The notes: a model not told the origin generated them from the sequence alone. Shown: positions 8,405-24,825, counted from the first letter of the stretch. The stretch: 32,000 nt of DNA from Parasynechococcus marenigrum WH 8102 (GCF_000195975.1 NC_005070.1:1320001-1352000); one strand, 5' to 3'. Translations and numbers: made by a program.

Positions 8405-9111
8405 ACAGGAGAGGCCTCGAGCCACTGCTGCAGGCTGCGCAACGGCTGATCGGGCGAACTGGTGATTTCAATGATGCGCCCACTGGCGGCCGGACTCTCC
8501 AGAGCATCGAGGCAGACCCGGGCCACCAGCCGCCGGGGAATGCTGCTGTTCTGCTGCTGATCCGCTCCCGTGAACACAACCCCTTCCGCCTCAGCGCGAC
8601 CATCGTCCTCACTGAGGCCACCAGGACGGATAACGGTCCAATCCAGGCCACTTCGCTCCAGCCAGCGCTCACCCAGTCGTTTCCACACCAGGATCAAACC
8701 GAACAAATTCAGCGGGTGCAGCCAGCGACCCGCGCAGAGGGAACTCACCAGCACCACCCGTTGGAGGCCGACGGCCCGGCAGGCCTGCACCTGAGACTGC
8801 ACGCCAGCAGCGTCCACTTGCAGTGGACCAGCGAGATTGATCGAGGGCCTGGCTCCCGTGGCAATCACCAGTGCCGTGCATCCCTTCAGGGCATGCAGCA
8901 GCGCCTCACCAGAGTTGAGATCGAGTCGTTGCACGTCGAGACGTTGATCACGCTCAGCCGCTGCCAGTGCCGGAGGCAACGTGGACTCCGGCCGCATGAT
9001 GGCCCGGACGGACATGCCCCGCTGCAGGGCTTCCTCCACCACCCGCCATCCGGTTTTGCCGGAGGCACCGGACACCGCCACTCGCTGCATCAGCCTTTTG
9101 TCAGAGGTCAC
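8386..9111 (-). CDS. NAD(P)H-binding atypical SDR (NmrA/ycf39-like)
   Basis: N-terminal Rossmann motif VAVSGASGKTGWRVV. 241 aa. Overlaps the 3' end of the upstream permease gene by 11 nt. Confidence 0.7.
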   Translation of the reverse strand: MTSDKRLMQRVAVSGASGKTGWRVVEEALQRGMSVRAIMRPESTLPPALAAAERDQRLDVQRLDLNSGEALLHALKGCTALVIATGARPSINLAGPLQVDAAGVQSQVQACRAVGLQRVVLVSSLCAGRWLHPLNLFGLILVWKRLGERWLERSGLDWTVIRPGGLSEDDGRAEAEGVVFTGADQQQNSSIPRRLVARVCLDALESPAASGRIIEITSSPDQPLRSLQQWLEASPVQAGST

Positions 9112-9949
9112 CAGTCAACTGCCCCTGGGACCGCCTCAACACGCCATGGCGCGGTGCAAACAGGAAGGCCAGCAGAAACTGCGCTGTTTGAACCAAGACG
9201 ATGCAACCGGCGGTGGAGCTGTCGGTCCAGTAGCTGACGAACACACCGAAGACACTCGACAGAACGCTGCTGATCACCGCCAGAACCGTCATGCGATCAA
9301 AGCGATCGGTGAGCAGATAGGCCGTGGCGCCAGGTGTCACCAGCATCGCCACCACCAGAATGATGCCCACCGTCTGCAGGCCAACCACCGCCGCCAGGGA
9401 GAGCAGGCCAAGCAACATGTAATGCAGAACACCCGTGTTGATCCCGATCGAGCGGGCGTGGGTGGGGTCGAAGCAGAACAGCATCAGATCCCGCCGGAAC
9501 AGCAACAGCAGCAGCAGCACAAGCGCTGAAATCAGCAGCGTCTGCTGAATGTCTCCGGCTGTGATGCCGAGGACGTTGCCGAACAGAATGTGGGTGAGGT
9601 CAATGTTGCTGCGGGTCTTGGACACCAGCACCAGACCGAGAGCAAAAAACCCCGTGAACACCAGACCGATCACGGTGTCTTCCTTGACCCGGGACTTCTG
9701 CTTCACAAAGCCGATCGCCGCCACCGAACCCACCCCGAACACAAACGCCCCAAGCGAAAAGGGCAGACCCAGGGCGTAGGCCACCACCACTCCGGGCAAC
9801 ACCGCATGGGACACAGCATCCCCCATCAGCGCCCAACCCTTCAGGGTCATGTAGCAGGACAGCAATCCGCAGACGCCCCCCACCAGAGCACTGACCAACA
9901 GCGCTCTCACCATGAAGGCATGACTGAGGGGCTCCAACAGCCAATCCAT
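9101..9949 (-). CDS. mntB: Metal (Mn/Zn-type) ABC transporter permease, ABC-3 family
   Basis: Polytopic membrane protein. The MDWLLEPLSHAFMVRALL N-terminus is typical of MntB/ZnuB-type permeases, so the start is taken at M13 of the track ORF. Confidence 0.8.
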   Translation of the reverse strand: MDWLLEPLSHAFMVRALLVSALVGGVCGLLSCYMTLKGWALMGDAVSHAVLPGVVVAYALGLPFSLGAFVFGVGSVAAIGFVKQKSRVKEDTVIGLVFTGFFALGLVLVSKTRSNIDLTHILFGNVLGITAGDIQQTLLISALVLLLLLLFRRDLMLFCFDPTHARSIGINTGVLHYMLLGLLSLAAVVGLQTVGIILVVAMLVTPGATAYLLTDRFDRMTVLAVISSVLSSVFGVFVSYWTDSSTAGCIVLVQTAQFLLAFLFAPRHGVLRRSQGQLTGDL

Positions 9950-10045
9950 GCAGGGCAAGACAGGGTGGTGTTCATCCTCAACCATGAAAGCGACGGTTGA
10001 GCCTTCGCGGAGAGCGATCAGGATGGGGGCCCAGGCTTCGGCCCG

Positions 10046-14516: not shown

Positions 14517-15128
14517 TCAGACGTCGTCTGAAGCAACAGATCCCAACAGAGCCAGAACCTGGTCAAGCCCCTTGGACTGATCGCGGATCACAACACTGGC
14601 GTTCTGTTTGAGGGGTTCGATGAAATGCCGTTCCCCAGGCAGCATCTCTCGAAACATCTGACGGATCACATAGCGGGGGGAACGATGGCGATCGCGGACG
14701 TCCCGCCGCAAACGACGCCACAGTCGCCGGGGCACGGACTCCTCCAGGTAAATCACCAAAAAGAAAGGGAAATCGCTCACCAGGTGCTGAGGTCCGTAGG
14801 CACCTTCCAGAAGGATCACGTCGTAGGGAGTTGTGATCGACCGACGCTGAACGCGGCGGGTGCGCATGTCGTACGTGCGCAAGGTCTGGGCCTGCCCCTG
14901 ACGTGCCGCTGAAAGATCAACGCGCAGGGCCTGATCATCGATGGCATCGGCGGTGTCGAAGCCGAACAGCGGATGGGGACTCCAATCCTGGCGGTAGTAG
15001 TCGTCGCAGGCGATCTGCAGAGGCTGACGACCGCGGGCCTGCAGGGCTTGCGAAAGGGACGCCGCAAAGGTGGTTTTGCCGGCCGCGGAAGGCCCACAGA
15101 TGCAAAGAACAGGCCATAGCGGGGTCAT
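14517..15128 (-). CDS. Uridine kinase / PRK-family P-loop kinase-like protein
   Basis: P-loop ICGPSAAGKTTFA, then CDDYY, FDTADAID and VILLEGAY blocks as in Udk-family kinases. Alternative start at 15170. Confidence 0.65.
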   Translation of the reverse strand: MTPLWPVLCICGPSAAGKTTFAASLSQALQARGRQPLQIACDDYYRQDWSPHPLFGFDTADAIDDQALRVDLSAARQGQAQTLRTYDMRTRRVQRRSITTPYDVILLEGAYGPQHLVSDFPFFLVIYLEESVPRRLWRRLRRDVRDRHRSPRYVIRQMFREMLPGERHFIEPLKQNASVVIRDQSKGLDQVLALLGSVASDDV

Positions 15129-15186
15129 GCTCTCGTACCAATACTTGCAAATACAGTAGGTAGGCCCCAAACCGCTTGCGTTGCAA

Positions 15187-15196
15187 TGGGTCTGAC
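15187..15196. repeat. Left copy of the 10-bp inverted repeat TGGGTCTGAC at the island edge
   Basis: Exact reverse complement of 24776-24785. Confidence 0.4.
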
Positions 15197-15296
15197 GGGG
15201 TGACAGGGTTGGCGTGTTCTACAAAACGAACGCGTAAAATTGGATAAAGCTGAGTTCAACAGACGCGACATAGAAGGTGCACGGCACACCGATGCA

Positions 15297-15437
15297 ATGC
15301 ACATTCGTATGCCTCGACGACTGGTGGTGTTCATCAAGACGCTGGCGTTGGTTGAAGGGTCTGATGCTTCCAAGATCGCCCGTCGCTTTCTGACCATCTC
15401 AGCCGTTCAGGAGGGTTATGACCCTGATGGCGTCTGA
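15297..15437 (+). CDS. Small ribbon-helix-helix (CopG/Arc-like) DNA-binding protein
   Basis: MHIRMPRRLVVFIKTLALVEGSDASKIARRFL fits a beta-strand/helix/helix RHH pattern. The track ORF begins at TTG 15240, but a TAAAAT -10-like hexamer at 15235-15240 favours the ATG at 15297. The 3' end overlaps the next gene by 20 nt. Confidence 0.5.
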   Translation: MHIRMPRRLVVFIKTLALVEGSDASKIARRFLTISAVQEGYDPDGV

Positions 15438-17838
15438 AACAAAAACTGTTCGGCGGCCACCTACTCCTGAACCGATGATCATTGTCGGTTGTCAGCGTGA
15501 GAAGACTCCGGAGGGTCGGCGCAAGCTGAACATTTCCCGCTCCAGCAGCATGGGAAATCCCTTTGTGCTGAAGGAGCACGGGGGTGATTGTGAGACTGCT
15601 GAAGAGGCCACCAACAAATACATCCAGTGGCTCTGGCCACGGCTGCGTGACACTAACTCCAAGGAATATGCCTGGTTTGAAAGCGCATCAGACCTGATGC
15701 ACTCGGGCCAGAAACTAATCCTGGGTTGTTGTGGTCATGATCATTGTCATGGTCTCTGGATCGCCCACCTCCTCAACACTGGTGATTGGCGTCGTTGGGA
15801 CACCCTGAATGTTCATGAGTGGTGCGACAACGTAACCAGACTGCTGGCCAAAAACTATGGAAAGTTCAAGGCTTTTGAGGAGGATGGATCGGCGTACACC
15901 GAATGGGAAGTTCTCCTAGGCCAGGTGGAGTTTCTTGATTGGGACGACAGGGCCCCAGGCAAGAAGCGACTGTATGCACTGTTATTTATCTTGCTACGTG
16001 CTCACGGTCCAGGTGGAGCACGTGAACTCATAACTGGCAACGCAGAAGCTCTCCTCAAAACCGTTGCGGTCATTAAAGAGATGGGTGAATTCCCCAAGAC
16101 TGAGCAACAGAAACAGCAGTCCGCGATGGACGAGCTGATTCAGGAGGGTTCCAGCAAAGCCGAAATCATGAGAACGGCGGCGCTCAATGGTGTCAGCAAC
16201 ACCTATTCCCTGGAGCGTTATGCCGAAGCGGCACAGGCTGAGAAGGAAACAGAGGAGGACATTCTTGAAGCCATCGACAAGCTCATGGATGCCGGCGAGG
16301 TGCCGGACATCAGGCTTGAGGATTACGTTCCAGCCAAATGGATTCCTGGCTTCAGGGTCCTGAGGGATGGCCTGAAGTTTCAGGATGACGTCTTGGTGGC
16401 GGTGATCGTCTGTTGCGTTGGAGCAATGCTCCCGCCGACGGCCCGCATCCAGGCCAAATCCATGGAGGAGAAGATCATCCTATGGATGTTCCTGATCGGC
16501 ACCAGTGGCGTCGCTAAATCAGTCTTGATCAAGCTGCTGTGTCTGACGCCGTTGAACTTCGGCGTCGTGCCGGCCGTGAAAGTAGTTAACGGCAAGGAGA
16601 ACGACGACTTCCGCAAGCAGAAGGCTGAGTACCACAAGGAAAAATCCAAGTGGGACAAGCTGAAACCAGAGGAGAAGGATGGAAAGGTTCCACCATCGCC
16701 GCCAGAGCCAACTCGGAAGAAGAACGTTATTTACACCTCGCCAACTACCCAGGGCATCAGAGCTGATCTTGCTGAGTTCGGTCCAATCATTCCAAGCCTG
16801 CTCGCCAAGGATGAGTTGTCGAGCTGGTTTAAGGAGATGGGCAGCACGGCACGACAGACGGACATGGAGTTCTATCTGTCGGCCTATGACGGCAGCTATT
16901 CCAATGAGGTTTTTGCTGACGCCCGTCTAAGCCGGGAGGTCACAGAAGCAGCACTATCAGTGTTGGGCGGAACCCAACCGAAGGTGTTCCTTCAGTATCT
17001 GGAAGCCGGTAATGCCAACGGGTTTAATGCCCGGCCATTGTTCTTCCAAGTCCCCCGGCTTGCCCGGACGCTGCTGGACAAACTAAACGCTGATCATGAT
17101 CTGACGCTCTACCTCGGTGATCTGTACGAGGCGGCGTTCAGATTGGGACCGATTGATCCCTTGCTGGCTTACTCAGAGGGGTTTTCCCATGGTGAGTGCC
17201 CGCCCGTTCCAGACATGGATCGGAAGCCGAAATTCTGGTTATCAGAATCGGCCACCGAGAAATTCGTAGAGGTGTTCAACCACCTGGAGGAGAAGTCGAT
17301 CTCTGCTGGTAGCGATGAGATCGAAGCATTGTGGGCTAAAGCGCCAGGACAGGTGCTGCGGGTTGCAGCGGCTATCCAGTTCATGCGGACCTACACCGGA
17401 ATGGAGCCGCAATCAGATGATTGGCAGCCCCCCGATGAATTGGTGCCACACGGCTTTTGGCGCAATCTTCGCCAACGGTTCAACTATGACGAGACCCAGG
17501 TAGAGGATCATGTCAGGAAGTTCTTCCCCCGCGTAAGCACCGAGACGATCATCTTGGCGACGAGATTAGTCATCGCCGGTAAAACCCAGGGCGTTGATCT
17601 GGTTGAACGTGGCAAGAACCCAATCCAGGAGATGTTGAGGGTGTTCCTGGCTTACACCAAAAAGCACACCCCAAAATCCTCCAGCAAGGGGGTCAAGCTC
17701 AGCACTATCAGAAAAAACGCCTGGAACGGTAAGGCCAGACCATCCGCTCCAGACATCAAACAGATGGCACAGCTGGCCAAGAGTCAGGGTCTGGTTGTTC
17801 TGGTTGAGGGCGGAACAGCGGTGAGGTCAGTCAGATGA
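15418..17838 (+). CDS. DUF4326-DUF3987 fusion protein (island replication helicase-like, YfjI/P4-type C-terminal region)
   Basis: Residues about 20-120 carry ..NISRSSSMGNPF..NKYIQWLW..LILGCCGHDHCHGLWIAHLL, the DUF4326 pattern. Residues about 330-720 carry the P-loop-like GTSGVAKS (nt 16498-16521) and a block YDGSYSNEVFADARLSREVTEAALSVLGGTQPKVF resembling DUF3987. Confidence 0.75.
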   Translation: MTLMASETKTVRRPPTPEPMIIVGCQREKTPEGRRKLNISRSSSMGNPFVLKEHGGDCETAEEATNKYIQWLWPRLRDTNSKEYAWFESASDLMHSGQKLILGCCGHDHCHGLWIAHLLNTGDWRRWDTLNVHEWCDNVTRLLAKNYGKFKAFEEDGSAYTEWEVLLGQVEFLDWDDRAPGKKRLYALLFILLRAHGPGGARELITGNAEALLKTVAVIKEMGEFPKTEQQKQQSAMDELIQEGSSKAEIMRTAALNGVSNTYSLERYAEAAQAEKETEEDILEAIDKLMDAGEVPDIRLEDYVPAKWIPGFRVLRDGLKFQDDVLVAVIVCCVGAMLPPTARIQAKSMEEKIILWMFLIGTSGVAKSVLIKLLCLTPLNFGVVPAVKVVNGKENDDFRKQKAEYHKEKSKWDKLKPEEKDGKVPPSPPEPTRKKNVIYTSPTTQGIRADLAEFGPIIPSLLAKDELSSWFKEMGSTARQTDMEFYLSAYDGSYSNEVFADARLSREVTEAALSVLGGTQPKVFLQYLEAGNANGFNARPLFFQVPRLARTLLDKLNADHDLTLYLGDLYEAAFRLGPIDPLLAYSEGFSHGECPPVPDMDRKPKFWLSESATEKFVEVFNHLEEKSISAGSDEIEALWAKAPGQVLRVAAAIQFMRTYTGMEPQSDDWQPPDELVPHGFWRNLRQRFNYDETQVEDHVRKFFPRVSTETIILATRLVIAGKTQGVDLVERGKNPIQEMLRVFLAYTKKHTPKSSSKGVKLSTIRKNAWNGKARPSAPDIKQMAQLAKSQGLVVLVEGGTAVRSVR

Positions 17839-17852
17839 CGTACCAACACGCA

Positions 17853-18120
17853 GTCCACTCCAGGTCCACTCCTTGTCCCCCTTCTTTTCCACCCCTACTT
17901 CTTAGTAGTAGTAGGGGTTTTGAAGACTGGGGGTGGATTGGAGCGGTGTCTGTTGGATCAGCAGGGATTGCCCCCTGGAACGTGAACAGCAGAACAACGG
18001 TGAGCCGGCCGCAGAATCTTTTACCCCTACGGGATGTCCACCTCTGCAACCCAAACCCGTTGCCCCAACTTGGATCCCTTGGTGGGAAACGACGGGGACA
18101 AGCGGTGGATTGGCGGTGGA
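17853..18120. repeat. Iteron-like field: seven copies of the core TCCAC/GTGGA, including two tandem pairs phased at 11 bp
   Basis: GTCCACTCC at 17853 and 17864. TCCACC at 17888 and 18037. GGTGGATTGG at 17932 and 18104. GCGGTGGA at 18102 and 18113. Confidence 0.45.
17892..17921 (+). terminator. Rho-independent terminator candidate after the helicase-like gene
   Basis: CCCCTACT (17892-17899) pairs with AGTAGGGG (17910-17917) and is followed by TTTT. Confidence 0.5.
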
Positions 18121-18172
18121 ACGTAAAAAATTCGTGTTCTGATCGCTGCGATTCACCGGAGGAAAAACTCTG

Positions 18173-18406
18173 ATGGGCCTTTCAAGGGAGCTTGAGGCAC
18201 TCAGACGCAGAGCAAACCGGGCAGCGTTAGCCACTCGGATGCCTGATATTGAGATTTTGGTCTATCACGAAGGTGATGAGATTCCCGAAGCAGCCTCTGA
18301 TTGGGCAATCAGGGTGATGATTGAAAAGAAGCGCGATTATTATGAACAAGGAGACCCTTCTCTCCATCCTGATGATGTCGCGGCCATTCAGGGAGAAGAC
18401 CCCTAG
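18173..18406 (+). CDS. Hypothetical protein (77 aa)
   Basis: ORF in the track, charged and helical, followed directly by a terminator hairpin. Confidence 0.5.
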   Translation: MGLSRELEALRRRANRAALATRMPDIEILVYHEGDEIPEAASDWAIRVMIEKKRDYYEQGDPSLHPDDVAAIQGEDP

Positions 18407-18430
18407 AAACCCCACTAGGGGTTTTCTTTT
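18407..18430 (+). terminator. Rho-independent terminator candidate
   Basis: AAACCCC (18407-18413), loop ACTA, GGGGTTT (18418-18424), then TCTTTT. Confidence 0.6.
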
Positions 18431-18473
18431 GGGCCTTTAATGTAGGTCTTGGCCAAATGGCCAGAACCGCCAT

Positions 18474-19034
18474 TCACGCGCCAGCCATCACACAGTCATT
18501 CTTCGCTGATTCAGACACGTCCAAATAATTGGACAGCATCGTCAGACTCGAATGGCCGCTGATTGATTGGATGTTGCGTAATGGGATCCCGTTCTGACTG
18601 GCAGCGGTCAAGAATGACCGTCGAAATGTATGGGTTGAGATTCCCTGCATCCCGATTTCACCAGCAGCCTTCCTCAACGCGTGATCGAAACCACGACGCG
18701 TCAGATGCTCGCCAGGATTCCTCCCTGGGAAGACCCAGTTATCTGGGCCGTTTAATGGAGCCACAACCTGCCGCCAGCTCGAAAGCTGATCGGCAAGATC
18801 TGGATGGATTGGAACGGTTCTTGTTCTCTTCTTCCCTTTGGTCGTTGGAGCGGCAAAGATAATTTCGGTCTTGCCGACGTACTGCCACTTGAGCTGTAGA
18901 CCTTCGGACACCCGAGCAGCGGTGCGTCTCAGCAAGGTGGCTAAGACACGATGATTTTCGGGCAGAACCGACAGCAACAGATCAAGCTCGGCAGTGGACA
19001 AGACCTCAGCTTTGCCGAAGCGATTGATCTTCAT
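18474..19034 (-). CDS. Tyrosine recombinase/integrase, catalytic domain only (186 aa)
   Basis: Catalytic residues are readable: R in TAARVSEGLQLKW, K in TTKGKKRTRTV, HxxR in STHTFRRS, and H..Y in SGHSSLTMLSNY. There is no N-terminal core-binding domain. Confidence 0.85.
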   Translation of the reverse strand: MKINRFGKAEVLSTAELDLLLSVLPENHRVLATLLRRTAARVSEGLQLKWQYVGKTEIIFAAPTTKGKKRTRTVPIHPDLADQLSSWRQVVAPLNGPDNWVFPGRNPGEHLTRRGFDHALRKAAGEIGMQGISTHTFRRSFLTAASQNGIPLRNIQSISGHSSLTMLSNYLDVSESAKNDCVMAGA

Positions 19035-19420
19035 AGATCTATTCAGTTACCGAGGTTCAGAGGCCAGGCAGAGACTGCCATGTCCTCAAATGAAAGGTAG
19101 AGGACTAGATGGCTACTTGAACAGCCATTACGTCAGATTCACGCACAGCATTATTTATCTAATTCGCAATCAAGATGATTCTTTTTGTCTTCAGCAATGC
19201 TGCTGTTTCGTGATGCTTGGTATCAGGATTACTGTTATCAGTAAGTCGAATAGCAGGGGGTGTGGTTGCAGTTTTTGCTTATACAATCGTAGAGCGGGGG
19301 ACTTACTTAATGACGATAGTAGAATGAGTAGCTAACCGTGTCAAGCAATTCTTTTGTAGAACAAATCCATGTGCATTTGATGTTGGAACGTATTACTATT
19401 GATGAAACACCACAATCCTT

Positions 19421-19651
19421 ATGGATAGTGATTGGGATCTAAGCATCGACGAATGGCGGTTGATGTCGCGGTGCACCAAGTGTGCACGCCAGCTTTATCC
19501 CTACAATCAACGCCAACAAGATTCCTGGGCAGAATCTGCATACAGGAAGTGCATCAACGGTCAATCCTCACCGGAGAACCTTAGAGACCGGCAGTCTCCA
19601 AGACTGTTGGAAATGCTTGCTAAGCGTCCACCCAAACTTCTTTACTACTGA
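19421..19651 (+). CDS. Hypothetical protein (76 aa)
   Basis: ORF in the track. Its stop shares one base with the next start (TGATG). Confidence 0.45.
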   Translation: MDSDWDLSIDEWRLMSRCTKCARQLYPYNQRQQDSWAESAYRKCINGQSSPENLRDRQSPRLLEMLAKRPPKLLYY

Positions 19652-20142
19652 TGCCTACTTTCGATCACACGGCTGATTTCGCCACCTGGTGGAGCCAGAC
19701 ATTCCCTGGAACGCAATGTCCACCACTGCCAAAGAAAAAGGGTGACTTGGGTCTGACTGCAGAGATTGCTTTGCAGTCTGACAATCCTGCACTTTTTCAG
19801 AACCTCTTCTCCAATGGGGGGCTGGGGTCAGGTTCTATGCCTGCCGATACTGTTGCCCGTAGGAATAGCGGACAACTCCTACCGCAGGACATCCCTCATC
19901 TCCGTGCTGCCGGTCTGGAGTGGGAAGCTCAGCAGGTGCAGCAACTGGACCAACGTCAGCAGGATCAGCGGGCTGCTGATGACCTCCTTGCGCTCCAGAA
20001 GCGGAATCGTCAGAACGATCTGGCTGTGCAGGCTCGTGCCTCTGAAACGAGTCACGATCGGTGGGCGCGGATGCTGAGCAAACCACCATCACCACAAGCG
20101 ATTGCAGCAGCCAGGTCCGCCTGGGGCATCACAGGTGAATGA
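19651..20142 (+). CDS. Hypothetical protein (163 aa) with Gln-rich coiled-coil-like C-terminal half
   Basis: ORF in the track. Overlapping stop/start codons at both ends (ATGA with the next gene). Confidence 0.5.
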   Translation: MPTFDHTADFATWWSQTFPGTQCPPLPKKKGDLGLTAEIALQSDNPALFQNLFSNGGLGSGSMPADTVARRNSGQLLPQDIPHLRAAGLEWEAQQVQQLDQRQQDQRAADDLLALQKRNRQNDLAVQARASETSHDRWARMLSKPPSPQAIAAARSAWGITGE

Positions 20143-20570
20143 CGTTTGCGATGGGCAAGAGACGTCGTGAAGACCAGGAACTGCCCCCCGTAGTCAAAAA
20201 GGCGTTAGTCCTTCGAGCATCGGGGGCTAGTTGGGTTGATTGTGCTGCTGCTGTTGGAACGTCAGCCACCAACCTCCGTGAATGGAGAAAGCATCCAGAT
20301 GCAGATGGATTCCTTCAGGAGGCCATCAAATCCAATCTGGAACAAGCTCATACTCTGCTGGCGGATGCTGCACCACGATTGGCGATGCGGCTCGTTGAAC
20401 TGGGTTTAGATCCCAAGGTGAAGGCTTACGCCCAGATCAGTGCCATCAGCGAAGCGTTCAAGGTGCTGCAACAGGGTGTGATCGACAAAGAGAACCAAGA
20501 TCAGATCCGTACCATCAAAGAAACACTCGAGCAGTTGGAGGGTGGAACGCCCAACGTGATCGATGTGTGA
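20139..20570 (+). CDS. Putative HTH DNA-binding protein (regulator, or terminase-small-subunit-like N-terminus)
   Basis: ..ALVLRASGASWVDCAAAVGTSATNLREWRKH.. reads as a helix-turn-helix, followed by a helical tail. A diverged copy of its 3' end occurs 383 nt downstream. Confidence 0.5.
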   Translation: MTFAMGKRRREDQELPPVVKKALVLRASGASWVDCAAAVGTSATNLREWRKHPDADGFLQEAIKSNLEQAHTLLADAAPRLAMRLVELGLDPKVKAYAQISAISEAFKVLQQGVIDKENQDQIRTIKETLEQLEGGTPNVIDV

Positions 20571-20657
20571 CAAAGCACACAGTTTGTGTTGTTGAGTTCC
20601 GCACATTGATCGGGTCTGACGCACTAATCACCGGAGAACTCGTCAAAATCTCAAAAC

Positions 20658-20840
20658 TTGGTCCTATGTATTTTGAACCGGCATCTTGAAGAACAGATCG
20701 AGATCTATCGATCGATGCTCTATCGAGAGGAATTTCTACCTCCAGATCCTCATGCTTGTGAGCATTGTGGGCCTATTTTACGTAAAATAGAAATACTGCA
20801 GAAGGAACTTGCAAATTACGAAAACCAAGCCGCTGCCTGA
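20658..20840 (+). CDS. Doubtful small ORF (60 aa from TTG; 41 aa from the first ATG)
   Basis: ORF in the track in a low-GC spacer. It contains the 10-bp palindrome ATCGATCGAT at 20707-20716. No family recognised. Confidence 0.2.
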   Translation: MVLCILNRHLEEQIEIYRSMLYREEFLPPDPHACEHCGPILRKIEILQKELANYENQAAA

Positions 20841-20856
20841 TTTTTCGTGTAAAGGT

Positions 20857-20953
20857 TGGGCGTGGTCGACAAGTAACACCAGGATCAGATCCATGCCATC
20901 AGATCAACCCTGGAACAAATCGAGGGTGGAACGCCCAACGTGATTGATGTCTG
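20857..20953 (+). pseudogene. Fossil 3' end of a homolog of gene 20139-20570
   Basis: Ungapped hand alignment to 20474-20570 gives 77/97 identities, with 31/33 in the last 33 nt. It translates GVVDK*HQDQIHAIRSTLEQIEGGTPNVIDV* against GVIDKENQDQIRTIKETLEQLEGGTPNVIDV*. There is an in-frame TAA and no upstream gene body. Confidence 0.7.
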
Positions 20954-21003
20954 AACGTCGCCCTATTTCACTTGATGAGGCTAAATATCGCGATCTTTGT
21001 ATT

Positions 21004-21585
21004 TTAGGAGAAATCGGTAGTTTTTCCTCTTTCACTAACTCCCGGGCCATAGGCTTTTTCAAGAATTTCGCCTACTTTCTGCTTGGCCGAATCAGGATCA
21101 AGTCCAAATAGTTCACGTTTAGGCGAAAGGCGATACCTTTTGAGTTTATGGTGTACAAGGTCTTCTGCTCCCTTCATATCTAACATTGGCCAGACATCGA
21201 TAATTTCAATAGAGTCCGGTGGACCAATATTGCCAGCTATTTCATCAATTCTTCTGTCAGGGTCGTCAGAATAACCAATTTTGACGCAGTCATTAAAGCC
21301 TTTTCTCTCGAGAGTCTCTTCCCAGATACTTTTTAGGTATGGAGCCCAGGCTATGTACACAAATCCCCTTTTAGAGTCTATTGCTTTTCTCCTAGCCTCC
21401 TCTGGTGAATTTGCCGAATCCCCATAGTAGGACTGTGCAGTTGCCGCAAAATTTATGAACTTAAATAACTTTACTATGGAGGCATATGTTTCGAGATAGT
21501 ATAGATAGTAGGGACCCTTTTTTGGACCCTCACCAGTCCAATCAATGTAATTAGCCATTCCATTAATCAATAATTTTTTTTCCAA
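21004..21585 (-). CDS. T5orf172 / GIY-YIG-superfamily-like domain protein
   Basis: C-terminal half GFVYIAWAP..VKIGYSDDPDRRIDEI..AEDLVHHKLKRYRLSPKRELFGLD matches the T5orf172 (MUG113-like) pattern. The track start is TTG, and the first ATG is at 21558. Very low GC. Confidence 0.65.
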   Translation of the reverse strand: MEKKLLINGMANYIDWTGEGPKKGPYYLYYLETYASIVKLFKFINFAATAQSYYGDSANSPEEARRKAIDSKRGFVYIAWAPYLKSIWEETLERKGFNDCVKIGYSDDPDRRIDEIAGNIGPPDSIEIIDVWPMLDMKGAEDLVHHKLKRYRLSPKRELFGLDPDSAKQKVGEILEKAYGPGVSERGKTTDFS

Positions 21586-21610
21586 GCCTAGTAATTGATT
21601 TGAGTATTTT

Positions 21611-22597
21611 TTATTGAATCGTATCTCGGAGAAATCTAGCCACGACCTGAGCAGTTTTCACCGTCGTAAAATGCTCTGCTGGAGATTGTTTGACGTCATT
21701 CAGGTAATCAACAAAGAAATCCAAACCCATTCCATATTTTTTTTCTTCGAACACACCAAGTCCCTGATCTCTCCAAACCTGTGACAACTTAGTGCTTAGA
21801 TTTAATTCCATTGCGGCAGCCATCGCTGCGCCGACAAGAGGTTCGGCTCCTTTTTGTAGTAGATGGGTCATAGCTTCAGCTGCAAATATTTCGTCGCCGT
21901 CTCTAAAAGTAAATTTGAGGGAGGATATTTCTTCAACATAATCTGTTTTGAGTCCGTTGTCACTAAAATTAGTCCCTTCATACTTAATGTTTTTACTGAT
22001 ATCTTTTTTGTATTTCTCAGGTCCAAATTTACTGAAAGTACTTTTATTTAAATCAAGCCAATACTGAGCAGCTTCCCCAAGATCTCTAGCGCCTTTATTT
22101 TTCTTATTCTTTTTAAGGAGAAATGAGGTGATCGCGCTACCAATATCCCTGAGATGCTTGATCTTTTCGGGATACATGGAATCGTCGACTTTCTGCAATC
22201 CGATAATCGGAGTAGAAGGGTCCTTTGAATCAGCATCCCAATTCACATAGAATAAATTGCTTTTTTTAATCGTATCAAGCAGTGAAATGAATAAATAATC
22301 CTCGAATCTCTGTTGAAAATAGCCAACTCTATATTTTGACTGTTTTGCCCTCAGCTTTCGAACTCTATCTGGATTGTAGTCCCTCACTCTTTTTGAGCAC
22401 CCATCGTTGTTTTCTCGAAATTTCGCGTGTGCAAAATGTGGGGTTCTTATTTCTCCTCTTTTTAGAAATACGTTCGCCCTGCACTCGGAGCAGACAATTA
22501 GGTTCTTGCCGATTAACCACCCATCATCACCATCCATCTTGAGGAATTCCTCAACGCTCATTGTTTCGAGCTTTACTAGGGAAAACGCGTAATCCAT
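21611..22597 (-). CDS. Protein with CoiA-N-terminal-like zinc-ribbon/HFAH motif; remainder unrecognised (328 aa)
   Basis: ..LIVCSECRANVFLKRGEIRTPHFAHAKFRENNDGC.. resembles the CxxC..G....HFAH..C head of CoiA-family proteins. Its ATG shares one base with the recombinase stop (TGATG). Lowest GC in the window. Confidence 0.55.
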   Translation of the reverse strand: MDYAFSLVKLETMSVEEFLKMDGDDGWLIGKNLIVCSECRANVFLKRGEIRTPHFAHAKFRENNDGCSKRVRDYNPDRVRKLRAKQSKYRVGYFQQRFEDYLFISLLDTIKKSNLFYVNWDADSKDPSTPIIGLQKVDDSMYPEKIKHLRDIGSAITSFLLKKNKKNKGARDLGEAAQYWLDLNKSTFSKFGPEKYKKDISKNIKYEGTNFSDNGLKTDYVEEISSLKFTFRDGDEIFAAEAMTHLLQKGAEPLVGAAMAAAMELNLSTKLSQVWRDQGLGVFEEKKYGMGLDFFVDYLNDVKQSPAEHFTTVKTAQVVARFLRDTIQ

Positions 22598-24600
22598 CAG
22601 TTCATTCTCCTACGACGAGCGGGGCGACCGCGCTTGCGTTGTTCACGTGATGTCCAGGGACCAACCAAGTCAGTGCCATATGTCTCTGGTTGGTTGAGCA
22701 GACCGATATGCCCCTCAAATGTTGACGAAGGGTCATCGCCGCCTGCCGCTACTACTTTTTGCCAATAGTCATGCTCTTCTGGCGTCCTGATTCCAATCAA
22801 ATCAACTATGGGCCAACCCTTATCAATTTTCTCTTCCCACCCCTTTTGAAGTCTTTCTGGATCAATAGTATTGTCTTGAAACTGGTAGATGCTATGGACC
22901 TTTGCTTTAAGAGCATCTGACATCTTGTCAAACGATGAATGATTTTTCATCGTCTCCAGCAAGCAGTTGACCATAACCAGCCTTCCTTGATCGAAGACTG
23001 GTTCACCGATGTTGACAAAAGCCTTCATTTCATCGGCTGGAAATACCTCATCATCCAATTCAGCAATCGCATGCCCATCCTCAAGACAGAGCACAAGCTT
23101 TTGTTCTCTTAGCCAAGTGTTGAACGAAACCCTTTGTTCAAGGCTGTTGTCCTCACCGCTGATAAACCCATCGATCTGACGCTTTAGAGCTCTTTCCGCT
23201 TCACGTCCTGTTTGCTGGTGCGTCAACTTATTAACTTCAGCTCTTACGTCATCGACTGCAGCTTGAGCCACGTTCTGATCAGCAAGCAGTTTGTCCAACT
23301 GACGACTGAACTGAGGCAGTACACGCAATAGCTCTGGACTATCGCTGGTAGTGAGCTTCGTAATGTTGCTATTGACTTTGGCTACGTCCTCCTGGATAGA
23401 CCTGAGCGTTTTTTCTGCTTCGAGCAGTGATGACCTTGCGGATGTCAAAGCAGCTTCTTGGACCCCTGCATTGAAAAATTCTTCCCAGCGATATTGAGCA
23501 AGGTGATTCAGTAAGAAAGCTTCTAGGTACTTGTGGCCACGCTGGGTGCAGATGCTGAAGTCATTTCGGCAACGTAGAAATTTTTGACCATTACCGGCGT
23601 TCTTCACCACCATTGGTGAGCCGCAATGACGACAATAAATCGACCCAGCGAAAAGGTTCTGCTGCGTTGGACTGTTGTTGCTGGGACGGGACTGACTACG
23701 TGATGACAGCCCCATCTGAGCTGCATCCCATTCCTCTTGTGTGACGACTGGTGGATAGCAAACAACCTTCTCATCAGATGGTTTGTTGTCTTTCCAGAAG
23801 ACCTTGTAGCCGAGTGCTGCTTCATTACGCAGAACACCCGAAACAGAATTTGGTGTCCACCTCCTGCGGCCATCGCTAACGGCCTTGATTCCTTGGCTGT
23901 CGAGATGGTTTGCAATACGTGTGATGCCCAGCTTTGGCGCAAGACTAAAAATGGTTTTGACATGAGTAGCCCAGTCGTTCAGGACGTACTCGCCATCTTT
24001 CACATCTAGCCAAAACGGATAGTCAGCTCGACCCCTCTTAGTTCGAGCTTTTGGCTTGTGAGTGCCCTGCTTATGTAAGTCACGTTCCTTGCGTCGAGCA
24101 GCAAGCGAACGGTCCTGGCGTTCCAACCATTCGCCTCTAGCACGTTGGATCGCACCAAGAACTACGTAGGCGTCACCGCTGTCTTGCTCAAAACAAGACA
24201 GCACCTTGCCGCCTAGTTCACAGAACGCGATAGCACCACCTGCATCCCATAGACGCAGAAGAGTCTTCAGAACGGCTTCTATGGGCTCTCGACTGAACCT
24301 AGATACCTTCTCCACCACCAGACACGTTCCACGCGGCAGAACGCCTTTCTCAAGCTCTGAGATGAACCATTCGAACCGGCCGGCTTTGGCGCCGCTAACC
24401 GTGACTCTGATTTCTCGATCCAGCGAGTAGTCCGGATGCTCAGACAGCCATGACTCAATGGCACGTTGCTGGCGCTCCTCACCACTGCGATCTTCACCGG
24501 ATTGCTTGCCGGTACTGACACGCGAATATGAGATGGCCACTTTGTGACCAGCCACATCAGCCTTGGTGCTGGCTTTGGTTTTGCTCTTTTGAGCAACCAT
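22597..24600 (-). CDS. Large serine recombinase (resolvase catalytic domain + recombinase domain + zinc ribbon + coiled coil + C-terminal extension)
   Basis: Catalytic motif VAISYSRVSTGKQ and VVEKVSRFSRE. Recombinase domain ..ITRIANHLDSQGIKAV..WTPNSVSGVLRNEAALG. Zinc ribbon CRHCGSPM..LRCRNDFSIC. 667 aa. Confidence 0.9.
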   Translation of the reverse strand: MVAQKSKTKASTKADVAGHKVAISYSRVSTGKQSGEDRSGEERQQRAIESWLSEHPDYSLDREIRVTVSGAKAGRFEWFISELEKGVLPRGTCLVVEKVSRFSREPIEAVLKTLLRLWDAGGAIAFCELGGKVLSCFEQDSGDAYVVLGAIQRARGEWLERQDRSLAARRKERDLHKQGTHKPKARTKRGRADYPFWLDVKDGEYVLNDWATHVKTIFSLAPKLGITRIANHLDSQGIKAVSDGRRRWTPNSVSGVLRNEAALGYKVFWKDNKPSDEKVVCYPPVVTQEEWDAAQMGLSSRSQSRPSNNSPTQQNLFAGSIYCRHCGSPMVVKNAGNGQKFLRCRNDFSICTQRGHKYLEAFLLNHLAQYRWEEFFNAGVQEAALTSARSSLLEAEKTLRSIQEDVAKVNSNITKLTTSDSPELLRVLPQFSRQLDKLLADQNVAQAAVDDVRAEVNKLTHQQTGREAERALKRQIDGFISGEDNSLEQRVSFNTWLREQKLVLCLEDGHAIAELDDEVFPADEMKAFVNIGEPVFDQGRLVMVNCLLETMKNHSSFDKMSDALKAKVHSIYQFQDNTIDPERLQKGWEEKIDKGWPIVDLIGIRTPEEHDYWQKVVAAGGDDPSSTFEGHIGLLNQPETYGTDLVGPWTSREQRKRGRPARRRRMN

Positions 24601-24608
24601 TGGAAACG

Positions 24609-24657
24609 CTTAGACCTGCTGCGCTGCAATGACTCTAGCTACCTATGCAAGTCTAAG
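24609..24657. promoter_or_regulatory. 49-bp imperfect palindrome 9 nt upstream of the recombinase ATG (att-like site or operator)
   Basis: Arms CTTAGACCTGC (24609-24619) and GCAAGTCTAAG (24647-24657) match at 10 of 11 positions as an inverted repeat, with a 27-bp spacer. Confidence 0.45.
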
Positions 24658-24775
24658 TACGTGACCATGCCCCCATGCTGGCAAGGCCAGACAAGAGCAC
24701 ATTCAGCGATTGGTAGCTGCTGATACAGAAATGCCCTATGATCAACTTACGTTGAGCTTCTTCAATGAAGCTGCA

Positions 24776-24785
24776 GTCAGACCCA
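24776..24785. repeat. Right copy of the 10-bp inverted repeat (GTCAGACCCA) at the island edge
   Basis: Exact reverse complement of 15187-15196. Coincides with the return to host-like GC. Confidence 0.4.
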
Positions 24786-24825
24786 CGCCAGGCAACGGGG
24801 GCATGGGCGCTGAAGAGGTGATGTC

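Follow-up and report, generated by a model that had tools for sequence, protein, structure and literature searches.

DUF4326 as an optional N-terminal domain of a predicted replicative helicase from a picocyanobacterial integrative element

What is a DUF4326 domain doing at the front of a helicase, in the place where a primase would be expected? The question is raised by an 806-amino-acid (aa) protein encoded in a stretch of 32,000 nucleotides (nt) from Parasynechococcus marenigrum WH 8102 (GCF_000195975.1 NC_005070.1:1320001-1352000), which we call the window and from whose first letter all positions are counted. Its gene lies inside a GC-poor island and within an integrative element of 9.55 kb (15121-24674) in this marine Synechococcus-type genome. 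The C-terminal half of the protein carries DUF3987, a family of superfamily 6 (SF6) helicases that are distant kin of MCM, end in a winged helix-turn-helix (wHTH) and are usually fused or adjacent to archaeo-eukaryotic primases (AEP) or DnaG primases (Kazlauskas 2016, PMC4889955). One PriCT-DUF3987 protein, AgaPH, is an ATP-dependent 5'-3' helicase that needs both its Walker A and its Walker B motif (PMC11724360). DUF4326, in turn, has been placed in the rhodanese-phosphatase superfamily and linked to ADP-ribose processing, with a predicted activity on terminal phosphates of ADP-ribose derivatives, and its fusions to DNA-replication and restriction-modification components have already been noted (Iyer et al., PMC9503650, PMC7824862). 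The remark in a preliminary description of this locus that DUF4326 has no established function is thus fair, although a prediction does exist.

Here we argue that the element is replicated with the 806-aa protein as its helicase, that DUF4326 serves this protein as an optional accessory enzyme, and that priming comes from elsewhere; taken as a whole, we consider this picture likely to be correct. The features on which the argument turns are the following.

15240-15437, plus strand: small regulator-like open reading frame (ORF) of 65 aa with a TTG start, putative ribbon-helix-helix (RHH) protein (ORF list)
15418-17838, plus strand: the element's predicted 806-aa helicase, in the order DUF4326, helical linker, DUF3987 (MCM-like AAA+), winged helix
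15475-15792, plus strand: DUF4326 domain, residues 20-125, Pfam envelope 29-116 (Pfam, model, BFVD matches)
15793-16377, plus strand: all-helical linker, residues 126-320, of no recognisable family (model; no Pfam match)
16381-17385, plus strand: DUF3987 AAA+ ATPase core, residues 322-656 (Pfam, model, Foldseek)
16498-16521, plus strand: Walker A motif GTSGVAKS, residues 361-368 (translated nt)
16810-16815, plus strand: Walker B residues D465-E466, within the (K/R)DEL(S/N)(S/G)W motif conserved across DUF3987
17032-17034, plus strand: R539, candidate arginine finger in GNANGFNxRPLF (Arg kept in distant DUF3987 proteins)
17680-17835, plus strand: C-terminal winged-helix-like domain, residues 755-806, two helices and then a beta hairpin (secondary structure of the model)

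Domain architecture of the 806-aa protein

The preliminary description had likened residues of about 330-720 to DUF3987, and Pfam does place this domain (PF13148) at residues 322-656, well above its gathering score (E 4.5e-31; 108.8 bits against a cutoff of 27; profile positions 3-330 of 364); PHROGs labels the same region 'DNA helicase'. When an AlphaFold model of residues 301-806 (predicted local distance difference test, pLDDT, 85.8; predicted template modelling score, pTM, 0.82) was compared with the PDB using Foldseek, only MCM2-7 and archaeal MCM chains were returned (best E 3.5e-5, probability 1.0). Judged from this model, the ATPase half is predicted to be of the MCM-like SF6 class. 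The P4-type affiliation initially proposed is not upheld, since DUF3987 is SF6/MCM-like and the C-terminal model matches MCM chains only. An SF3/D5-type helicase resembling P4 alpha or the Pri-Rep proteins of phage-inducible chromosomal islands (PICIs) was considered as a candidate and rejected, because Pfam matches no D5_N or SF3 helicase domain in the 806-aa protein and its structural neighbours are MCM chains.

The likeness to MCM helicases, the sole significant structural match of the ATPase half, extends to the Walker A motif (GTSGVAKS here, GDPG[TV]AKS in MCM) and to a C-terminal winged helix. In contrast to MCM proteins, the window protein is bacterial and element-encoded, has no N-terminal OB/zinc domain, gives no Pfam match to PF00493 (MCM) at E <= 1, and shows no sequence-level similarity to PDB entries, searches with the whole protein and with a 35-sequence profile having returned nothing relevant. 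A replication-type helicase of a mobile element, as had been suggested, is nonetheless the designation on which the DUF3987 domain, the MCM-like model and the element context agree. Neither NCBIfam nor PADLOC matched the helicase, which thus shows no sign of membership in a known defence system; in 50,697 phage genomes searched by tblastn, the helicase half of the protein had a single weak match, to an unannotated record.

The helicase family as gathered from marine metagenomes and assemblies comprises 35 clusters at 90% identity (P0019 being the member from Parasynechococcus marenigrum WH 8102), and we compared it with 26 distant DUF3987 proteins from a genome contig scan, which returned distant loci only and no Synechococcus genome. 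K367/S368, D465/E466 and R539 do not vary within the family, and the 26 distant proteins have the same residues at the aligned positions; R539 is a candidate arginine finger, likened to that of the MCM SRFD motif. At the C-terminus, residues 755-806 are modelled as helix, helix and beta-hairpin with a pLDDT of 83-89, the winged helix being judged by secondary structure alone.

The P-loop at 16498-16521 does read GTSGVAKS on translation, as had been described, and it is only the view of this motif as altered, with an alanine ahead of the Walker lysine, that has to be abandoned. G361, S363, G364, A366, K367 and S368 are invariant across the 35 clusters; an alanine in the same place is the norm in MCM proteins, whose solved chains read GDPGTAKS or GDPGVAKS; and across DUF3987 the position is free, the 26 distant proteins having G, L, M, F, K, R or A there while all of them keep the K[ST], the RDELSGW Walker B motif and the downstream Arg. 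Being family-invariant, standard in MCM and located at a free position, the alanine needs no explanation, and these comparisons indicate a normal family trait rather than a lesion.

At the other end of the protein, the assignment of the first 120 residues or so to DUF4326 (PF14216) agrees with Pfam, which matches residues 29-116 above threshold (E 3.6e-7; 31.2 bits against a cutoff of 25; profile positions 5-81 of 82); PHROGs assigns this region to a family of unknown function. The hallmarks are all present as G46-N47-P48-F49, Y68-IQ-W71-L72 and C104-C105-GHDH-C110-H111, except that the Cys/His signature, first written C.C....CH, in fact reads CC....CH, one residue being deleted relative to typical DUF4326. 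R41, N47, P48, C104, C105, C110 and H111 correspond to invariant columns in alignments of 40 and of 33 DUF4326 sequences, and no acidic residue is found among the invariant positions of the 40 diverse domains. In the N-terminal model (pLDDT 87-93 in the domain, 85-93 over residues 20-220) DUF4326 folds into three strands and three helices and superposes on viral DUF4326 models of BFVD with root-mean-square deviations of 2.1-2.7 A over ~100 columns (Foldseek, probability 1.0), with template modelling (TM) scores of up to 0.84 (I1TQR6) and of 0.73 for DUF4326 of Vibrio phage JSF7. Against the PDB, the same model gave no match with E < 1, for DUF4326 and the helical linker alike. The window copy shares the Pfam domain, the R / NP / C-C / CH invariants and the predicted fold with the stand-alone and SLOG-, NADAR- or Macro-fused DUF4326 proteins of phages and giant viruses (PMC7824862, PMC9503650). 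Unlike them, it is fused to a predicted replicative helicase, its C.C is shortened to CC, and the near-invariant loop Pro of other DUF4326 proteins is His or Asp in the window family.

Between the two domains lies the region in which a canonical primase fold could have been hidden. Residues 130-292 of the model (helices from 132) consist of helices only, and a primase fold is thus absent from them; nor does the wider segment of residues 130-330 give a Pfam primase or a PDB fold match. No primase was matched in the 806-aa protein by Pfam, PHROG or NCBIfam, and none was found among the Foldseek matches of the N-terminal model in the PDB and BFVD, AEP and Toprim folds included. The N-terminal part of the linker is variable within the family. 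The possibility that the linker (126-318) is a cryptic PriCT was entertained and rejected, as the probability that hhalign returned for a match to the PriCT_1 regions of 15 Prim-Pol-DUF3987 proteins was 0.5%.

What distant DUF3987 proteins carry in the corresponding place was read from a domain scan of 10 of them. Five have Prim-Pol followed by PriCT_1 (Prim-Pol ~25-220, PriCT_1 ~220-300, DUF3987 ~320-715) and one has Prim-Pol alone, the others showing a DnaG zinc ribbon, a weak Toprim, a DnaB N-terminal domain or a C-terminal PolA (one each). Since such proteins usually have a primase-type N-terminus (Prim-Pol with PriCT in 5 of the 10 and DnaG-type pieces in two more, in agreement with PMC4889955), DUF4326 does occupy, by position, the very slot that related helicases give to a primase, just as the preliminary description had it. 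A fusion of a different kind is found at L011 (9470-13189), which, in a metagenome-assembled genome (MAG) of a Planctomycetaceae, encodes a 1240-aa protein that joins DUF3987 (168-507) to a family-A DNA polymerase with a 3'-5' exonuclease.

Two known systems make the substitution concrete. The Prim-Pol + PriCT_1 + DUF3987 fusions (PMC4889955; L014, L017, L021, L026) have the same three-part layout in ~770-810 aa, with an N-terminal module of ~100-200 aa, a linker of ~100-200 aa, the core from ~320 and a C-terminal wHTH. They differ in that the window protein has DUF4326 and not an AEP primase, that its linker is not PriCT, and that the residue before the Walker Lys is M, L or F in them and A in the window protein. 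AgaPH, from an integrative element of Seonamhaeicola (Nucleic Acids Res 2025, PMC11724360), belongs to the same Pfam ATPase family, has the K[ST] of Walker A, the DE of Walker B and a small C-terminal domain, and is likewise the replication helicase of an integrase-bearing mobile element. In contrast, AgaPH carries PriCT at its N-terminus and is encoded next to a gene for an AEP primase-polymerase, whereas the window protein begins with DUF4326 and an unrelated helical region and has no primase nearby; the two are also distant in sequence (comparable distant DUF3987 proteins are 23-30% identical).

Distribution and constraint of DUF4326

All 35 clusters of the family carry DUF3987 and none carries a primase domain, while DUF4326 is found in nine; the 26 clusters without it keep everything else, their N-terminal leader joining the shared helical region directly. 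Mapped onto a tree of the helicase core, DUF4326 occurs across the whole clade to which the window protein belongs and again on a nested branch of the other clade (P0014/P0015), whose sisters are without it. DUF4326 is an optional accessory of this helicase family. Moreover, no primase domain is matched by Pfam in the neighbouring genes of the window or of five related loci within L001-L008, and priming is therefore probably borrowed.

Optional as it is, the domain is not neglected by selection where it does occur. Compared with the 59%-identical protein of a metagenomic relative (L001), the ratio of nonsynonymous to synonymous substitution rates (dN/dS) is 0.115 in DUF4326, 0.20 in the linker, 0.25 in DUF3987 and 0.34 in the C-terminus, such that DUF4326 is the most constrained segment of the 806-aa protein. 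This argues, at the level of sequence evolution, that DUF4326 is functional here.

The partners that DUF4326 has elsewhere point away from priming as well. An exhaustive HMMER search of 1.84 billion representatives gave 250 matches at E <= 1e-3, the best 150 of which are mostly stand-alone proteins of ~100-150 aa; among those 150, the multidomain proteins contain SLOG (YAcAr, cpYpsA, DprA-like), NADAR or DUF7831 domains, and fusions of DUF4326 to DUF3987 are confined to this picocyanobacterial family and its fragments. With a profile built from diverse DUF4326 domains, 3213 matches were obtained, and the best 120 of them are all stand-alone (95-172 aa). The proposal that the fusion suggests a role in priming or initiation therefore fares poorly against the 26 clusters that dispense with DUF4326 and keep the rest, the absence of acidic invariants and the SLOG/NADAR partners, all of which indicate that DUF4326 is probably not a priming domain.

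One family member turned up in an unexpected place. A contig labelled as a Chitinophaga pinensis MAG (L009, 9209-11524) encodes a 772-aa member with 39% identity and the Walker A motif GTSGTAKS; the contig is probably mis-binned, the alternative being a wider host range of an otherwise picocyanobacterial family.

The integrative element and its other genes

The remaining features of the element, from its left to its right end, are these.

15121-15149, no strand: left recombination site, palindromic core CATG at 15126-15129 (recombinant junctions)
17835-18173, plus strand: ORF112, of doubtful coding status, whose start overlaps the helicase stop (ATGA); syntenic in L001
18173-18406, plus strand: ORF77, small and conserved, closing the putative operon; 91% aa identity to the L001 copy, no family match
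18474-19034, minus strand: tyrosine recombinase of 186 aa, catalytic domain only (Pfam Phage_integrase, E 5e-26)
19651-20570, plus strand: ORF163 (19651-20142) and ORF143 (20139-20570), conserved element genes
22597-24600, minus strand: large serine recombinase of 667 aa, adjoining the right site (Pfam Resolvase, Recombinase and Zn_ribbon_recom)
24646-24674, no strand: right recombination site, core CATG at 24666-24669, an imperfect inverted repeat of the left site (23/29)

The helicase protein is recorded on many contigs, and the ends of the element are defined by its occurrence on them in both orientations. In L035, L038 and 19 similar contigs it is inverted between the same flanks relative to the window, L036 and L037, and the two orientations are 100% identical over the element except for one indel and two exchanged half-site bases. 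The junctions are recombinant exactly within the palindromic CATG, around which imperfect 29-bp inverted repeats (23/29) are arranged. A self-complementary central dinucleotide would abolish directionality, such that the element either flips in place or integrates both ways; and because an identical element has recombined at its ends, the recombinase is or recently was active. The 667-aa serine recombinase is likely the integrase or invertase of the element.

At the left end, the CATG core and the ATG of a flanking gene of the PRK/uridine-kinase family (14517-15128, minus strand) overlap. The upstream region of this gene is thus element DNA and changes completely with the orientation of the element, which could therefore act as an expression switch for the kinase gene. 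Two metagenome scans found no empty attachment site, the reconstructed attB giving no match and its 20-mer core two chance matches that have no homology to the window. The window holds no tRNA, and around the operon no iterons, origin, promoters or terminators were found above chance. Just beyond the right end, at 24747-24807 on the plus strand, lies a Glutamine-II riboswitch aptamer (Rfam RF01704, 53 bits, E 2e-10).

By its sequence features this is probably a small integrative and replicative element of the tycheposon/PICI-like kind. Like tycheposons and PICI-like satellites (Hackl et al., bioRxiv 10.1101/2020.12.28.424599), it is a picocyanobacterial integrative element of ~10 kb that combines a compact replication module with a site-specific recombinase, and its relative L007 has a terminase-like gene. 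Tycheposons are marked by a small replication module and by integration beside a tRNA, with a tyrosine recombinase specific to the lineage or a large serine recombinase. Unlike them, the element has no flanking tRNA, and a large serine recombinase probably integrates it at the start codon of a protein gene; its likeness to tycheposons is one of layout and description.

On the plus strand the putative RHH ORF, the helicase gene, ORF112 and ORF77 follow one another, the first three with overlapping start and stop codons and ORF77 starting on the last base of the ORF112 stop. The 20-nt overlap between the end of the 65-aa ORF and the start of the 806-aa ORF, reported earlier, agrees with the ORF list and is kept in L001; given this overlap, the helicase appears to be co-translated with the small regulator-like protein upstream. 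In P0001, which has the identical sequence, gene callers place the start at M20, yielding a protein of 787 aa, and with this start the overlap would be lost. However, the N-terminal MTLMAS is kept in P0002-P0007, even where an insertion of ~75 aa comes directly after it, and this conservation favours the ATG at 15418, which has AGGAGG upstream, over M20. The RHH label of the 65-aa ORF is weak: its sequence pattern (HIRMP / RRLVVFIKTLALVEG / SDASKIARRFLTISAVQEG) is compatible with strand-helix-helix, whereas the only match is a weak one to the Arc-like repressors of PHROG 2639 (E 6e-3), with zero matches in Pfam and the PDB. With 86% aa identity to L001 and a dN/dS of 0.10, the ORF is under purifying selection.

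Less can be said for ORF112 as a gene. Its dN/dS against L001 is 0.75, and on the identical contigs L035-L038 it is not called as a gene; its amino acid composition is odd, and its ends are conserved at the nucleotide level. The region may not code for a protein at all and could instead be a cis element, perhaps a replication origin. The same idea was considered for the ORF77 region and rejected, as the block 18114-19113, which also covers the tyrosine recombinase gene, looks like a recent recombinational exchange. The 186-aa tyrosine recombinase is indeed 97% identical to its L001 copy against only 59% for the neighbouring helicase, and this block appears to have been exchanged recently between elements. 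The recombinase is 38-46% identical in L005-L007, has a dN/dS of 0.08, and keeps its short length of 186-192 aa in all related elements.

Further downstream, ORF143 has a faint resemblance to small terminases (E 3e-3 only). Its last 97 nt including the stop (20474-20570) are repeated 384 nt downstream at 20858-20954 with 79% identity, and the repeat appears to be what is left of a related gene or of an earlier element. A 1-nt insertion at ~21655 relative to L035 splits a 530-aa nuclease-like gene, with CoiA_N and T5orf172/MUG113 domains, into 21004-21585 and 21611-22597 (minus strand), through a frameshift or else an error of sequencing in this copy.

The block 15214-20566 recurs in L001 with its gene order unchanged. 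In more distant relatives the helicase, the short recombinase and an ORF143-like gene are retained, and XisAC-type recombinases or a terminase-like gene are added. In related elements whose helicases are without DUF4326, the XisAC-type recombinases replace the serine recombinase (L005 2-1105, L006 225-1355, L007 146-1228), and L007 has at 8472-10031 a gene resembling terminase large subunits. This suggests a satellite-like family of elements with interchangeable integration modules.

Competing explanations and significance

How would such a helicase work? By analogy with AgaPH and MCM, we infer that it would form a ring around the DNA of the element and unwind it at the expense of ATP, probably binding the origin, to which the C-terminal winged helix would target it, with primers supplied by host DnaG or by a helper phage. 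DUF4326 would then be a Cys-based enzyme of the rhodanese/phosphatase type acting on phosphate or ADP-ribose-linked groups, as proposed by Iyer, Burroughs and Aravind, and, tethered to the helicase, it would be able to act on DNA or on molecules derived from nucleotides where the element is being replicated. It is conceivable that in doing so it counters host interference based on NAD+ or ADP-ribose.

Several observations weigh against this explanation or blur it. First, chains of PtpB, Cdc14, ShufPTP and macrodomains match the N-terminal model at E > 1 only, and hence the rhodanese/phosphatase assignment is drawn from published work and from the layout of strand 99-104, Cys loop and helix 111-121, which in the model fits the catalytic Cys loop of rhodaneses and protein tyrosine phosphatases. 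Second, other fusions of DUF4326 to helicases may exist, since the survey covered the best 150 of 250 matches to a family-biased profile. Third, the polarity of unwinding cannot be predicted from relatives that move 5'-3' (AgaPH) and 3'-5' (MCM). Finally, no origin could be identified and no iterons were found, and with one cargo gene frameshifted in this copy the element may be defective.

The three Cys and the His of DUF4326 could equally make a metal site, which leads to the alternative that fares best. In this alternative DUF4326 is a non-catalytic Cys3-His metal-binding module for nucleic acid that, like the zinc domains of the DnaG/T7 type, aids origin recognition or the grip on single-stranded DNA (ssDNA). 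C104, C105, C110 and H111 do lie in one loop, with extra His residues in the family (CCGHDHCH), the distant DUF3987 protein of L015 shows the DnaG CHC2 zinc ribbon in the equivalent place, and no enzyme fold in the PDB is matched significantly. However, four ligands within eight residues, with C104 next to C105 and C110 next to H111, would make for poor tetrahedral geometry; R41, N47-P48 and the NADAR/SLOG fusions better fit an active site for a small molecule or phosphate; the Aravind group assigns DUF4326 to the rhodanese-phosphatase superfamily; and within the helicase family the domain is an optional one. We consider a metal-binding role unlikely.

An enzymatic DUF4326 could also be imagined in a more specific capacity, working on the nucleic acid of the fork itself. 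It might strip ADP-ribose-linked or phosphate adducts from ssDNA, against DarT-like or NAD+-dependent defences, or make or unblock a 3' end from which replication could start with no primase encoded by the element; this proposal strikes us as quite unlikely.

A further alternative holds that the locus is a decaying remnant, in which the helicase fusion is accidental and without current function and the element no longer replicates. The frameshifted CoiA_N/T5orf172 gene, the 97-nt remnant that duplicates the 3' end of ORF143, the dN/dS of ORF112 and the failure to find an empty attachment site or an origin would all be expected of such a remnant. Yet the 806-aa ORF is intact, its dN/dS against the 59%-identical relative is 0.12-0.34 in every segment, all ATPase motifs are preserved, and the element has recombined at its ends while remaining near-identical over 9.5 kb, and decay is thus a very improbable account of it.

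The weakest alternative is that DUF4326 replaces the missing primase by priming or initiating DNA synthesis of the element, with a replication-initiation role for the whole DUF4326 family: its location exactly where Prim-Pol or DnaG-type domains sit, the lack of a primase gene in the element and related loci, the strong purifying selection and the fusions to replication components mentioned by Iyer et al. 2021 speak for it, but the domain is small (~100 aa, three strands), its invariants (R, N, P, C, C, C and H) include no acidic residue that could bind catalytic metals, and its fold matches neither AEP nor Toprim; in 26 of 35 clusters the same helicase and element architecture go without the domain or any substitute; and its relatives stand alone (the best 120 of 3213) or, where multidomain, pair with SLOG/NADAR and not with polymerases, all of which renders this alternative highly improbable.

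We thus return to a replicative helicase with an optional accessory enzyme and borrowed priming. Much of its setting is already in the literature, namely the DUF3987 helicases, their kinship with MCM, the variable Walker A motif and the link of DUF4326 to replication proteins. What is new is DUF4326 in place of Prim-Pol in a primase-less picocyanobacterial family of DUF3987 helicases, and the combination of optionality with strong constraint. The practical pay-off is modest, as the fusion refines a published prediction and overturns nothing, and the orientation-flipping element with its serine-recombinase sites may equal or exceed the helicase fusion in interest.

Taken together, DUF3987 proteins are widespread and barely studied MCM-like replicative helicases of bacterial mobile elements, and the family described here shows that they can exist without a fused or adjacent primase. 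Its natural relatives with and without DUF4326 provide a concrete experimental system. Phages and giant viruses commonly encode DUF4326, and its fusion to a helicase offers an entry to its function, be it on DNA, on ADP-ribose derivatives or on neither. Should DUF4326 after all work on nucleic acid at the fork, the fusion would give a first hold on what this domain, present in thousands of phage and giant-virus genomes, acts upon.

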